Part shown: positions 26,267 through 38,413 of the stretch, piece after piece | Layout: each line of letters begins with the position of its first letter | Position numbering within the stretch: position 1 is the first letter of the stretch | Assembly: GCF_041248615.1 (NCBI RefSeq) | Contig: NZ_CP158426.1 | Length of the DNA: 64,000 nt | Direction: 5' to 3' (one strand) | DNA from: Escherichia coli | Lineage (GTDB): Bacteria > Pseudomonadota > Gammaproteobacteria > Enterobacterales > Enterobacteriaceae | The notes under the pieces: model-generated | Told to the model about the DNA's origin: nothing | The model's input: the letters and a program-made list of their open reading frames with translations, nothing else | Database searches by the model: none | Position numbers and translations under genes: made by a program

Positions 26267-27460
26267 TCAAATCTGTCGTAACTGCGCCTCAACATACAAA
26301 TAGCCAATCCCCAGCACCTGTTGTGCGCGGCTTAATTGCCCAAAGCCAATTTTCGTCGCTTTCACGCTCGGTCCTTCGTCGCGGTCGAACGGGTTAAATC
26401 CCGTCTGGCGAATAATGGTATTAAGCCAGTGCTCACCAAAGGCACAACTGCGACCGTACAACCAAATCTGATTAATATTGAGGATGTTGAGGAAGTTATA
26501 CAGACTCAAACCAATGGCATTGGCAGAGCGATCAACCCAGCTGGTGATCCACGGTTCTCCACTCTGCCAGGCAGCGATTAACTGCGCTGTTGTCAGTTTT
26601 TCAGGATCAAGCTGAGTATTAACCGGTTGTGATTTTAGCCATACCCGCGCCTGTTTTTTTAATGCACTTAACGAGGCGACGGTTTCCAGGCAGCCGTAAC
26701 GTCCACAGTCGCAGACGACACCATCCGGATTAACGATGGTGTGACCAATCTGTCCGCTACCATACAAACTGCCGCGATAAATTTGCTCGTTAATCACGAA
26801 CGACGAGCCAATGCCGTAATCAACGTTGATCACGCAGAAATCCCGTTCCTGCGAATTATTTTGCCATTTCTCCGCCAGCGCCAGCATCACGCAGTCATTA
26901 TCGACCATCACCCGAATGCCGAGCTTCTCTTCCAGCAGATACTTTACCTCAACCGGCGTTGTCCACGGCGCTTGCGGCATGGTTTGCGACACGCCAGTCA
27001 CCGGATCAACCTGACCGTGGATTGCCAGCGCCAGGTTGATGGTACGGTCCGGCCACAATTTACGGTGGCGATGCCAGCATTTTTCGATTTCGGACAGCAG
27101 CGCCTGCGGCGTCGGTGCATCAATCTGTAAATACTCAAATTCACCTTTCGGACTTAAACAGGCGTTAGCGACCTGACACTCAATACTGGTGGGCGTCACG
27201 TTCAGGCACAGCGTCCAGTCACCTTCCGGCGCAATCAGCCATGTACCGCTACTATGCCCGCGCGTCTGGCTTTCATCGTCGATATTCACCACCCGTTTTT
27301 CGCTTTCCAGTTCCTGCAAAATATTACTGACTGCCGGAATCGAAATTTGCGCCAGCCGGGCCAGGGTTGATTTATTGGCGCGCTTTTGCCGGTACAGCAG
27401 TTCCAGAATCACGCATTTGTTATGGTGGCGAATCTGTTGATTATTAATGCAGGCTCTCAT
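26267..27460 (-). CDS. yphH: ROK-family (NagC/Mlc-like) transcriptional regulator
   Basis: About 397 aa; N-terminal HTH; ROK sugar-kinase-like domain with Cys cluster CDCGRYGCLE. Confidence 0.85.
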   Translation of the reverse strand: MRACINNQQIRHHNKCVILELLYRQKRANKSTLARLAQISIPAVSNILQELESEKRVVNIDDESQTRGHSSGTWLIAPEGDWTLCLNVTPTSIECQVANACLSPKGEFEYLQIDAPTPQALLSEIEKCWHRHRKLWPDRTINLALAIHGQVDPVTGVSQTMPQAPWTTPVEVKYLLEEKLGIRVMVDNDCVMLALAEKWQNNSQERDFCVINVDYGIGSSFVINEQIYRGSLYGSGQIGHTIVNPDGVVCDCGRYGCLETVASLSALKKQARVWLKSQPVNTQLDPEKLTTAQLIAAWQSGEPWITSWVDRSANAIGLSLYNFLNILNINQIWLYGRSCAFGEHWLNTIIRQTGFNPFDRDEGPSVKATKIGFGQLSRAQQVLGIGYLYVEAQLRQI

Positions 27461-27577
27461 CTTCACTAAACCTTGTTTAGTTAATTGCGTGATTATTCCG
27501 CGAAAACATTGCCAGATTGTTCAATACACTGCCACAAATCTTTTAATTCAGTATGTCTTGTTAATATTGAGGGCACC

Positions 27578-30500
27578 ATGACTCCAGTAAAAGTGTGGCA
27601 AGAGCGCGTTGAGATCCCGACCTATGAAACCGGGCCGCAGGATATACATCCCATGTTCCTGGAAAATCGCGTTTATCAGGGATCGTCCGGCGCGGTTTAT
27701 CCCTACGGCGTGACCGATACGCTGAGCGAGCAGAAAACCCTGAAATCCTGGCAGGCGGTGTGGCTGGAAAACGACTACATTAAAGTGATGATCCTGCCGG
27801 AACTGGGCGGTCGGGTGCATCGCGCATGGGATAAAGTGAAACAGCGCGATTTTGTCTATCACAATGAAGTCATTAAACCGGCGCTGGTGGGGCTGCTGGG
27901 ACCGTGGATCTCCGGCGGGATTGAGTTTAACTGGCCGCAACACCATCGCCCGACCACCTTTATGCCCGTTGATTTCACCCTCGAAGCCCATGAAGACGGC
28001 GCACAAACCGTGTGGGTCGGCGAAACGGAGCCGATGCACGGTTTACAGGTGATGACTGGTTTCACCTTGCGTTCTGACCGGGCGGCGCTGGAAATCGCCA
28101 GCCGCGTCTATAACGGCAACGCCACGCCGCGTCATTTCTTGTGGTGGGCCAACCCGGCAGTGAAAGGGGGTGAAGGGCATCAGAGCGTCTTCCCGCCGGA
28201 TGTAACGGCGGTGTTTGATCACGGCAAACGGGCCGTCTCCGCTTTCCCCATCGCCACCGGCACTTACTACAAAGTGGACTACTCCGCCGGAGTGGACATT
28301 TCTCGCTATAAAAATGTGCCCGTTCCAACCTCATATATGGCTGAAAAATCACAGTACGATTTTGTTGGCGCGTGGTGTCACGATGAAGATGGCGGTTTGC
28401 TGCACATTGCCAACCACCATATTGCGCCAGGTAAAAAACAGTGGAGCTGGGGACACAGTGAATTTGGCCAGGCGTGGGATAAGAGTCTGACCGACAATAA
28501 CGGCCCGTATATCGAACTGATGACTGGTATTTTTGCCGATAACCAGCCCGATTTTACCTGGCTTGATGCTTACGAAGAGAAGCGTTTTGAGCAGTATTTC
28601 CTGCCTTACCATTCTTTGGGCATGGTGCAAAACGCCTCCCGCGATGCGGTGATTAAACTCCAGCGTAGCGAGCGGGGGATTGAGTGGGGGCTGTATGCCA
28701 TCTCTCCGTTGAAAGGATACCGTCTGGCGATCCGCGAAATCGGCAAATGCAACGCGTTGCTCGATGATGCCGTGGCCCTGACACCAGCGACCGCCATCCA
28801 GGGCGTGTTGCACGGTATCAATCCTGAAAGGCTGACCATTGAACTCTCCGATGCCGACGGCAATATCATACTGAGTTATCAGGAACATCAGCCGCAAGAG
28901 TTGCCGTTGCCGGACGTCGCCAAAGCGCCACTGGCAGCACAAGACATTACCAGTACAGATGAAGCCTGGTTTATCGGTCAGCATCTGGAGCAATATCATC
29001 ACGCCAGCCGTTCACCGTTCGATTACTACCTGCGCGGCGTGGCGCTGGATCCGCTGGATTATCGCTGTAATCTGGCGCTGGCGATGCTGGAATATAACCG
29101 CGCAGATTTCCCGCAAGCGGTGGCGTATGCCACTCAGGCGCTGAAACGCGCACATGCGCTGAACAAAAATCCGCAGTGCGGACAGGCGAGTTTGATTCGC
29201 GCCAGTGCTTACGAACGTCAGGGGCAATATCAACAAGCCGAAGAGGATTTCTGGCGTGCGGTCTGGAGCGGCAACAGTAAAGCCGGTGGCTATTATGGTC
29301 TGGCACGGCTGGCGGCGCGTAATGGTCACTTCGATGCTGGTCTGGATTTTTGCCAACAAAGTCTTCGCGCCTGCCCAACCAATCAGGAAGTGCTTTGCCT
29401 GCATAATCTGCTGCTGGTGTTAAGTGGTCGTCAGGACAACGCGCGTTTGCAGCGCGAGAAACTGCTGCGTGATTATCCGCTGAACGCCACTCTGTGGTGG
29501 CTGAACTGGTTCGATGGTCGTAGCGAATCAGCCCTCGCGCAGTGGCGCGGTCTGTGTCAGGGACGCGACATTAACGCCCTGATGACCGCCGGGCAACTGA
29601 TTAACTGGGGAATGCCTGCCCTGGCGGCAGAGATGCTGAACGCACTGGACTGCCAGCGCACGCTGCCGCTTTACCTGCAAGCCAGCTTGCTGCCGAAAGC
29701 TGAACGCGGCGAACTGGTCGCAAAAGCCATTGATGTCTTCCCACAGTTTGTCCGTTTCCCGAATACGCTGGAAGAAGTGGCGGCGCTGGAGAGTATTGAA
29801 GAGTGCTGGTTTGCCCGTCATTTACTGGCCTGCTTCTACTACAACAAGCGCAGCTACAACAAAGCCATTACTTTATGGCAACGTTGCGTAGAGATGTCGC
29901 CGGAGTTTGCCGACGGCTGGCGCGGGTTAGCGATCCATGCGTGGAATAAGCAACACGATTATGAGCTGGCCGCGCGTTATCTTGATAATGCTTATCAGCT
30001 TGCTTCGCAGGATGCACGTCTGCTTTTCGAACGGGATTTGCTGGATAAGTTAAGCGGAGCCACACCGGAGAAACGACTGGCGCGTCTGGAAAATAATCTG
30101 GAAATTGCGCTGAAACGCGACGACATGACCGCAGAACTGCTCAATTTGTGGCATCTCACTGGTCAAGCAGACAAAGCGGCGGACATTCTCGCCACGCGCA
30201 AATTCCACCCGTGGGAAGGCGGGGAAGGGAAGGTCACCAGTCAGTTTATCCTCAACCAGTTATTACGCGCCTGGCAGCACCTTGATGCCAGAGAGCCGCA
30301 GCAGGCCAGCGAACTGCTTCATGCCGCGCTGCATTATCCGGAGAATTTAAGCGAAGGCCGTTTACCGGGGCAAACTGACAACGACATCTGGTTCTGGCAG
30401 GCGATATGCGCCAACGCGCAGGGCGATGAAACTGAAGCGACGCGTTGTTTACGTCTGGCGGCGACTGGCGATCGCACCATTAACATTCACAGTTATTACA

Positions 30501-37933: not shown

Positions 37934-37990
37934 CTGAAACTGTCCAGGTTTTGGGGTTCAGTTCAGTTCACGCCGCATCCGGCATCTTTC

Positions 37991-38413
37991 CTAACGCCGA
38001 TCGAGAGAAATTGCCCCCGGCCCGGTAATTGCCAACAGCAGGAATGCGCCAGCGATACTGACATTTTTCCAGAAATTAATCATATTTGGCCCAACCGCAT
38101 CGCCGGTCATATCCCAGTAATGGTGACCAATTACCGCTGTACCCAGCGTGTAGAAAATAAACAGCACCGCCAGCGGACGGGTGAAAAAGCCAAGCACGAT
38201 TAATATCGCGGCGGGCACTTCCATAACTACCGCAATAATCGCTGCCAGCATCGGCATTGGCGCGCCCAGCGAGGCCATATATTGGACCGTACCGTCAAAA
38301 CCCATCATTTTGGGAAAACCAAAAATAATGAAAATTAAGACCACGGCGATACGGGCAATTAATAACAAAACGGGGCGTGCAGCTCCAAAATCAAAATAAC
38401 GTAGTGTGTTCAT
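37991..38413 (-). CDS. yphA: DoxX-family inner membrane protein
   Basis: [39 protein letters not shown]..., 140 aa, 4 TM segments; track ORF is extended by 24 codons. Confidence 0.85.

Follow-up and report, generated by a model that had tools for sequence, protein, structure and literature searches.

The yph operon of Escherichia coli: a conserved sugar locus with one recent lesion and a possible enzymatic role for the DUF5107-TPR protein YphG

Layout of the yph locus

The yph locus of Escherichia coli lies at positions 26267-38413 of the 64,000-nucleotide stretch of DNA analysed here (the window, below) and comprises the genes yphH, yphG, yphF, yphE, yphD, yphC, yphB and yphA, with a copy of the insertion sequence (IS) IS1397. 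In a sequence search, 26267-38413 was 100% identical to the record NZ_LT599825.1 of E. coli NRZ14408. From glyA the order runs through yphH, yphG-yphFED-yphC-yphB, then IS1397, and yphA to hcaD; the gene order is that of K-12, the gene lengths are equal and the nucleotide identity to K-12 is 95.3-98% per yph gene. The locus is the E. coli yph operon, orthologous to b2543-b2550 of K-12, and the gene content and coordinates given in an earlier note on this DNA agree with both the list of open reading frames (ORFs) and the RefSeq annotation of NZ_LT599825.1. The K-12 locus differs in having neither the stop at Trp87 of yphB (W87*) nor IS1397 in the repetitive extragenic palindromic (REP) element between yphB and yphA, both of which are present in this strain. 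Taken as a whole, the explanation that we favour, with somewhat better than even confidence, is that of an intact core operon that carries one lesion and whose largest protein, YphG, would be the converting enzyme for a galactose-related sugar. The operon is already known and annotated in E. coli; what is new here are the constraints on YphG from its domains, its genomic neighbourhoods and its remote homology.

The gene yphH (26267-27460, minus strand) is intact, diverges from yphG and encodes a transcription regulator of the ROK family with 397 residues. The protein matched Pfam ROK (9e-33) and, weakly, an N-terminal MarR-type helix-turn-helix (3e-4, residues 16-53). It is not equivalent to NagC or Mlc, with 111.6 and 108.8 bits vs cut-offs of 650 and 530, and it has been described as the third, uncharacterised ROK repressor of E. 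coli, on a long branch (PMC4288165). In the yphH-yphG intergenic region, a conserved 30-bp element without assigned strand, TCACTAAACCTTGTTTAGTTAATTGCGTGA (27463-27492), directly adjoins the yphH start codon and holds the palindrome ACTAAAC-n3-GTTTAGT. It was the best-conserved stretch among 16 aligned yphH-yphG upstream regions, taken from Escherichia, Klebsiella, Enterobacter, Citrobacter, Budvicia, Hafnia, Cedecea, Serratia, a Sodalis-like genome and Aeromonas, and we infer that it is a candidate YphH operator. Scans of the locus for consensus promoters and terminators gave no signal above shuffled expectation.

The genes from yphG to yphB lie on the plus strand. The first of them, yphG (27578-30859), is intact and encodes the 1093-residue protein discussed below. 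It is followed by yphF (30956-31939), yphE (31962-33473) and yphD (33498-34496), all intact, which encode a periplasmic sugar-binding protein of a CUT2 (ribose/galactose-type) ABC transporter, an ABC ATPase with two fused ABC domains and an ABC permease, respectively. YphF matched Pfam Peripla_BP_4 (1.7e-32) and its closest solved structure was 5hsg (2.7e-24); the best curated models were those of the allose, MglB, LsrB, rhizopine and ribose binding proteins, and its scores fell well short of the cut-off for each (allose, 64 vs 335). YphE has two Pfam ABC_tran stretches and scored 404-455 bits with the models of AraG, XylG, AlsA, MglA and YtfR, vs cut-offs of 689-850 (AraG, 455 vs 689). YphD matched Pfam BPD_transp_2 (7.6e-36), and the RbsC and AraH models gave it 221-227 bits, below cut-off. 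As judged from these domains, YphFED is an importer of CUT2 architecture, made up of a Peripla_BP_4 protein, a double-ABC ATPase of about 500 residues and a BPD_transp_2 permease. The next gene, yphC (34529-35623), is intact and encodes a Zn-dependent medium-chain dehydrogenase of the polyol/threonine dehydrogenase type; its start in the K-12 annotation is at the position equivalent to 34562. YphC contains the Pfam domains ADH_N (GroES-like) and ADH_zinc_N, and its PDB matches include xylitol dehydrogenase. Its best curated models, L-threonine 3-dehydrogenase and scyllo-inosose 3-dehydrogenase IolM, gave about 170 bits vs cut-offs of 380 and 450, and it was below the cut-off of the idonate 5-dehydrogenase equivalog too.

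Thus no yph component reaches any curated NCBIfam equivalog cut-off, and the earlier statement that the cluster has no assigned substrate holds on all these scores. The induction of YphF on levoglucosan was considered as a lead to the substrate and set aside, as it looks like general catabolite derepression. The operon shares its transporter architecture and the presence of an anomer-handling enzyme with rbsDACBKR, alsRBACEK, mglBAC/galM and ytfQRT-yjfF. Unlike these operons, it contains neither a kinase nor a known isomerase, its repressor is of the ROK family instead of LacI or RpiR, and its sole candidate for a pathway enzyme beyond the dehydrogenase is the 1093-residue DUF5107/TPR protein.

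The yphB lesion, the IS1397 insertion and selection on the operon

The last gene of the sugar operon, yphB (35635-36507), is an aldose 1-epimerase pseudogene. The nonsense codon reported by the earlier note is real: both the translation and the alignment with K-12 contain an in-frame stop at codon 87 (35893-35895), where a single change has turned TGG for Trp into TGA, and the next base is C. The RefSeq annotation by PGAP flags the gene as a pseudogene with 'internal stop' as well. The truncated product has 86 residues and ends right after the HGDG motif, with loss of the GWHPYF and CLEP motifs, so that the full-length Aldose_epim fold with its His/His/Glu catalytic motifs is not encoded by yphB of this window. 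YphB of K-12 has a solved structure (PDB 3nre, 'Aldose 1-epimerase'). The exact 61-mer that spans the stop was found in two of the 5,426 complete E. coli genomes, NRZ14408 and OW967178.1, and W87* is a young allele private to this small two-genome clone. The effect of the loss of YphB is probably mild, because mutarotation of sugars occurs spontaneously, E. coli possesses further mutarotases, and UGA followed by C is a weak terminator at which tRNA-Trp can read UGA at a low frequency and give back Trp.

Downstream of yphB, a REP palindromic unit has been split in two. Its left half, TGCCGGATAAGGCGTTC (36517-36533, including GTTC at 36530-36533), is followed by a complete IS1397 of the IS3 family (36534-37965, plus strand, 1432 bp) and then by its right half, GTTCACGCCGCATCCGGCA (37966-37984, including a second GTTC at 37966-37969); the two halves have no assigned strand. 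At the same place, where the 3' ends of yphB and yphA converge, K-12 has the unit TGCCGGATAAGGCGTTCACGCCGCATCCGGCA without interruption. The element entered the loop of the REP unit, which is split after GTTC, and this 4-bp motif is duplicated on both sides. Its terminal inverted repeats are TGAACTGCACCCCAAA / TGAACTGAACCCCAAA; the two-ORF transposase is intact, has a programmed frameshift and was named 'IS3-like element IS1397 family transposase, programmed frameshift' by PGAP. An IS is therefore present as the earlier note had claimed, not at the edge of the cluster but inside it, between yphB and yphA, and neither a gene nor a promoter is interrupted by this copy. According to the part of PMC1525189 that cites Clement 1999 and Wilde 2001 and 2003, insertion of IS1397 specifically into REP palindromic units has been shown experimentally; the insertion site therefore reflects target choice and says nothing about selection. 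In its length of 1432 bp, its IS3 affiliation, its two-ORF frameshift, its position in the loop and its short duplication, this copy matches IS1397 insertions in REP units and bacterial interspersed mosaic elements, and there is nothing unusual in it. A search of the NRZ14408 chromosome with the 12-kb query gave matches at 10 places; the extra ones are probably mostly further copies of IS1397, because no other part of the query is known as repeated.

The IS junction at this site was found in 31 of the 5,426 complete genomes. In one of these strains, MEI003, all yph genes are intact. The interval from yphB to yphA (the IS with its flanks) differs from the MEI003 copy at 11 of 1483 positions (about 0.7%), about as much as the adjacent yphB. 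This level of divergence suggests an older insertion that has been inherited with its flanks and would be selectively silent.

The earlier note regarded the stop in yphB and the IS as signs of relaxed selection, in which case they would be the first steps in the loss of the cluster from this lineage. We calculated the ratio of nonsynonymous to synonymous substitution rates (dN/dS) by the Nei-Gojobori method with two references, K-12 and MEI003, the latter being the nearest strain with an intact yphB (98.5% identical). Compared to K-12, the ratios were 0.052 for yphH, 0.072 for yphG, 0.080 for yphF, 0.045 for yphE, 0.021 for yphD, 0.008 for yphC, 0.118 for yphB and 0 for yphA. These are low values like those of the flanking genes glyA (0.017), hcaB (0.060) and hcaD (0.143). 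Compared to MEI003, the pooled yph value was 0.088, which is the strong purifying selection in a close relative with intact yphB that the note itself had named as evidence against its view. The seven yph genes other than yphB are intact at their full K-12 length, with dN/dS not above 0.10 against both references. At least 80% of the 12-kb region is present in 5,367 of the 5,426 complete genomes (about 99%), and the statement that the locus is conserved in E. coli is borne out. On the side of relaxed selection, yphB is truly inactivated and differs from that of MEI003 by three nonsynonymous and two synonymous changes; however, five differences are too few for a rate estimate, the stop allele is confined to two genomes, and the IS, targeted to its REP unit, disrupts no gene, and MEI003 carries it next to an operon that is fully intact. 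We therefore consider the decay of the cluster in this lineage to be very improbable. The locus is under ordinary purifying selection as a core-genome operon in working order but for one recent lesion, and decay describes no more than a single gene in a clone of two genomes. In this genome it is an ordinary locus, with a core operon, one private pseudogene and a neutral IS, and there is nothing special about the strain.

Independent disruptions of yph genes do occur elsewhere, and they count in favour of loss. In the Logan short-read assemblies, one (L011) has a stop at Trp198 of yphB (W198*, 3592-3594) plus a shortened yphC, a second (L012, 591-3597) has a split yphD and a split yphB, and a third (L095, 8685-8690; protein P0009) has a 5-bp deletion in yphG. 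Public assemblies also contain yphB with in-frame deletions of 90 and 42 residues (P0309 and P0278) and frameshifted yphB. Such truncated yphB and yphG alleles weigh against an operon that is needed everywhere, since they mean that it is dispensable in some lineages. However, none of the 5,426 complete E. coli genomes has W198* or the 5-bp deletion. Some lineages can lose the operon, but there is no general erosion of it in E. coli. Shigella, or another clone that has been sequenced heavily, may be the source of the damaged Logan assemblies. The protein clusters of damaged operons of these three types hold from hundreds to more than 1,000 member sequences. A 61-mer count for the yphB allele of L012 was discarded, because it also matched 134 genomes with an intact yphB, including ATCC 11775.

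Some further variants concern yphG. In our ORF calls for E. coli SCPM-O-B-8794 (NZ_JAATUR010000003.1, about 2379-5700), the gene is split into ORFs of 841 and 244 residues, which suggests another independent disruption. Three E. coli variants of YphG, with 955 (P0002), 741 (P0028) and 643 residues (P0040), have large in-frame deletions in the TPR region only, in which residues of about 501-632, 428-770 and 480-928, respectively, are missing. This confinement is as expected from recombination between TPR repeats.

Architecture and conservation of YphG

YphG was described in the earlier note as a very large TPR protein. Its size of 1093 residues and its TPR half agree with this description, which misses that the most conserved part of the protein is an N-terminal DUF5107 domain. 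Pfam DUF5107 (PF17128) matched residues 39-324 with 190.7 bits vs a gathering score of 24.4, together with TPR repeats, and the protein can be divided into DUF5107 (about 1-345), a small beta-sandwich (about 357-435) and a TPR superhelix (about 460-1093). Models made with AlphaFold2 (AF2) from the single sequence were unusable (mean predicted local distance difference test score, pLDDT, 35.7). With an alignment of 32 sequences, the helical C-terminal half was predicted confidently (pLDDT >90) and the small beta-sandwich was resolved as well. On this model the C-terminal half is a true TPR superhelix, whose best structural neighbours include the sensor and regulator proteins Rap, PlcR and domain III of MalT. 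An (alpha/alpha)6 barrel of the GH15, GH65 or GH94 type was considered for the helical half and ruled out by the fold searches.

No match of YphG to a characterised enzyme was found by sequence or by fold in Pfam, in sequence and profile searches of the PDB and in fold searches, and a literature search on the yph genes, DUF5107 (PF17128/IPR033396) and 5CD6/BDI_1685 gave no functional study, so the protein's description as one of unknown function stands. The Klebsiella literature on yphG was set aside, as the gene serves there only as a marker for the polymerase chain reaction and gives no functional information. Searches with the DUF5107 region in Pfam at E up to 10 and by profile in the PDB returned only DUF5107 or 5cd6. 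Matches to the Wzz chain-length determinant (E of about 0.007) fell in an insert region and were rejected as chance matches. The only solved homologue, PDB 5cd6 (BDI_1685 of Parabacteroides distasonis, 'TPR-domain containing protein'), has DUF5107 followed by TPR as in YphG and matches residues 40-345 at E 1.4e-31 by profile. However, with 580 residues it is about half as long as YphG, and it is without several of the YphG-invariant residues (HH to SH, KK to IK and DHGKR to SHA).

The YphG family consists of 3,877 clusters at 50% identity, and 865 of these fall below 1e-30. Its members mostly have about 1,100 residues, and the two-part DUF5107-TPR architecture is therefore the norm. A DUF5107 orthogroup is among the indicator gene families that predict lifestyle in the genomes of uncultured marine heterotrophic stramenopiles (MAST), beside digestive enzymes (PMC8163842), and the family therefore occurs in eukaryotes too.

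Conservation is concentrated in the N-terminal part, where the first 460 residues of the E. coli protein are 53-58% identical to those of Bacteroidota or Bacillota. Among 105 diverse homologues of full length, we found 67 near-invariant positions, 56 of which lie in residues 1-353. They include a polar set of E64, N65, D85, K100, E116, N118, H122, H123, R124, N179, N192, H215, K286, K287, E313, N322, Q323, D325 and E333, together with W110, S112, G113, G114, W291, W300 and Y311; many near-invariant residues of YphG are thus polar or aromatic. In the TPR part they are few (Q472, Y483, W563, R782, E818 and E880), and block identity is 0.1-0.3 in most of this region vs 0.4-0.65 in the beta domain. 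None of the 19 substitutions by which YphG of this strain differs from that of K-12 is at these listed positions. A signal peptide was found in none of 80 orthologues (their selection is described below); all of them start directly with the conserved MxxVKVWEE and therefore are without one.

A possible link to the mutarotases came from proteins that we call Epi316, which are aldose-epimerase-like, have 316 residues and adjoin YphG in Paenibacillus and Ruminiclostridium. Their match to Pfam Aldose_epim (4.5e-6) has a score of 26.7, just under the cut-off of 27. In profile alignment with hhalign, DUF5107 matched Epi316, a family of only seven sequences, with a probability of 96.6% (E 6.7e-10, 283 columns); Epi316 matched the YphB family with 90.9%, GalM matched the YphB family with 96.5%, and the controls GH36, GH97 and SusD stayed below 1%. 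DUF5107 and Epi316 have the motifs 'ENxxI.V.vLPELGG(R/K)' and 'SG.(E/D)..(F/W)P' and the strand 'N.t..p..FLWW' in common. We read DUF5107 as a probable remote member of the mutarotase-like supersandwich superfamily, on the strength of these profile alignments. With respect to the aldose 1-epimerase superfamily (GalM, YihR, YeaD and YphB), the motifs are shared through Epi316 and not directly with the GalM and YphB profiles, and DUF5107 differs from GalM and YphB in its own invariant HHR and KK motifs and its fusion to about 630 TPR residues. The canonical His/His/Glu set of mutarotases was not found in the hhalign alignment of DUF5107, in which the second His position is taken by Asn192 and the equivalents of the other residues are uncertain.

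Genomic neighbourhoods and a possible role of YphG

To examine the neighbours of YphG orthologues, one genome per species was scanned, and the best 80 of more than 590 relatives were examined, among them Bacteroidota, Bacillota and a planctomycete. Five genes on each side, called crudely as the longest ORFs, were clustered and labelled with Pfam; the counts below are out of these 80 loci. A sugar porter (Sugar_tr) of the major facilitator superfamily (MFS) was present at 46 loci, at 37 of which it lay within two genes of yphG and on the same strand, and a mutarotase of one of three subfamilies was present at 25. The regulator was of the AraC family at 46 loci and of the ROK family at 13, the latter in Enterobacterales plus Photobacterium. 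Klebsiella shares the layout of E. coli. The operon of Serratia, Aeromonas and a Sodalis-like genome consists only of ROK / YphG - MFS sugar porter - mutarotase, with an XylE-like porter and without an ABC system, a dehydrogenase (yphC) or any other enzyme. The constant partners of YphG are a sugar porter and a mutarotase, and the regulator family and the type of transporter are interchangeable. This is as expected for a cytoplasmic enzyme that acts on an imported sugar.

The other neighbours are largely glycoside hydrolases (GH). GH2 was found at 31 loci, GH36 at eight, GH95 at six, and GH35 and GH97 at five each, and 44 of the 80 loci contain at least one galactosidase-type GH. Sulfatases occurred at 10 loci, and SusC and SusD at 10 and nine, respectively. 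The GH2 neighbour is 8u01-like (E 1.3e-180) and belongs to subfamily GH2_20, which has been reported as beta-galactosidase (PMC12243196). More distant relatives are also found in loci for sugar use, one a polysaccharide utilization locus with GH16 and sulfatases and another a locus with GH116. The glycosidase neighbours point towards a galactose-related sugar.

From these patterns, the operon could work as follows. YphH would be a ROK repressor that probably binds the palindrome beside its own start codon and controls yphG to yphB. YphFED would import a neutral sugar the size of a monosaccharide, or a small glycoside, and YphG would be the enzyme of the system that catabolises it in the cytoplasm. 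Binding and conversion of the sugar would fall to the DUF5107 domain with its own invariant polar set, listed above from E64 to E333; the reaction could be a ring-opening isomerisation or epimerisation, or else a small glycoside could be cleaved. The TPR superhelix may act as a clamp or as an oligomerisation scaffold that adds few conserved residues (R782, E818 and E880). YphB would equilibrate the anomers of the reducing sugar consumed or released by YphG, and YphC may be an accessory dehydrogenase that belongs only to the Escherichia/Klebsiella form of the operon. The substrate would be galactose-related, to judge from the neighbours of YphG orthologues in other phyla. As far as sequence comparison can carry it, we lean slightly towards an enzymatic role for YphG.

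Several points speak against this assignment. Besides the crude gene calls, none of the associated genes was found at 14 of the 80 loci. In the AF2 model, pLDDT was below 50 at residues 78-127 and 188-327, which are exactly the conserved DUF5107 segments. The link to the mutarotases is only transitive, through one intermediate family of seven sequences, and direct hhalign comparisons of DUF5107 with the YphB or GalM families were not significant (0.4-0.6%). The histidine of the Epi316 'W..H' motif, which is the second mutarotase His, aligns with Asn192 of YphG (WWAN). Canonical mutarotase chemistry is therefore not simply retained, and the chemistry of YphG, on the basis of this alignment, is probably not plain mutarotation. 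Furthermore, TPR arrays typically serve protein-protein interaction and not catalysis.

Alternatively, YphG could be a non-enzymatic, sugar-sensing scaffold, in which the mutarotase-like domain only binds the sugar and the TPR superhelix signals to a partner, such as the regulator, the transporter or some other protein. This would be analogous to domain III of MalT or to the TPR sensors of the Rap/PlcR type. The confident TPR superhelix of the C-terminal 630 residues, with these sensors among its structural neighbours, and the Asn in place of the second catalytic His are consistent with such a function. Mutarotase-like supersandwiches are non-catalytic in many glycosidases, and a regulator gene is adjacent at 59 of the 80 loci. 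However, this regulator is ROK in Enterobacterales and AraC elsewhere, and the transporter is ABC or MFS, so no constant partner for signalling is evident. If YphG were a scaffold, the minimal operons would hold no catabolic enzyme, and the extreme conservation of the beta domain combined with the low conservation of the TPR region fits a catalytic pocket better than a TPR binding surface. We therefore regard the scaffold as rather unlikely.

Within an enzymatic role, YphG might be a cytoplasmic glycoside hydrolase or phosphorylase that cleaves a small galactoside, or another disaccharide, after its import. The reaction would set free a reducing sugar as one anomer, which YphB would then equilibrate, and YphC would oxidise a polyol aglycone. 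A mutarotase gene beside a glycosidase is a classical arrangement (gal/lac, YihR/YihQ), and methyl- and glyceryl-galactosides are also among the substrates of CUT2 systems such as Mgl. The many invariant carboxylates would suit such a reaction, the His-His-Arg and Lys-Lys motifs could bind phosphate, and the Bacteroidota orthologues are surrounded by periplasmic exo-glycosidases and sulfatases. However, these same exo-glycosidases would already free monosaccharides, and XylE-like porters and CUT2 transporters carry mostly monosaccharides. This variant is doubtful, with perhaps a modest chance of being right.

Returning to YphG as an enzyme that converts a sugar, we tentatively propose, at somewhat less than even confidence, that the DUF5107-TPR proteins form a new class of cytoplasmic enzymes that convert sugars, with a mutarotase-like domain as their basis and a dedicated porter to serve them. 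They would catalyse a step, so far unrecognised, by which cells use a galactose-related sugar that galactosidases have set free. Members of the family occur in thousands of lineages, which range from E. coli and Klebsiella through Bacteroidota of the gut and Paenibacillus of soil to marine Flavobacteriia; if the proposal is true, yphH-yphB in E. coli is a genetically tractable entry to that pathway. K-12 keeps a complete and conserved sugar operon under purifying selection without an assigned substrate, and the YphG family is very large. The family thus represents a sizeable gap in carbohydrate metabolism that can be tested in E. coli, Klebsiella or Bacteroides. The pattern of porter, mutarotase and galactosidase, together with the remote mutarotase link, narrows the search to a galactose-related monosaccharide or a small galactoside.

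In the marine Flavobacteriia Maribacter, Hyunsoonleella, Seonamhaeicola and Zobellia (L056, L059, L063, L065, L068 and L070), the YphG orthologue was found in a fixed block of sulfatase - MFS porter - GDSL esterase - GH2 - YphG orthologue - sulfatase(s) - GH2. From its gene content, this block seems to be dedicated to a sulfated, acetylated galactan, and the substrate of the YphG family might best be sought here.

The remaining gene, yphA (37991-38413, minus strand), is convergent with yphB, intact and encodes a membrane protein of the DoxX family (Pfam DoxX, 2.5e-20). In Klebsiella the DoxX gene is on the other side of the cluster, between glyA and yphH, and it is not at the yph-type loci of Serratia and Aeromonas; yphA is probably outside the sugar operon. 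In the E. coli type strain ATCC 11775 (L013, NZ_CP033092.2, 6893-8823), hcaT comes directly after yphA. This strain is without hcaR-hcaEFCBD for phenylpropionate dioxygenase, which in K-12 and in the window lie between yphA and hcaT.

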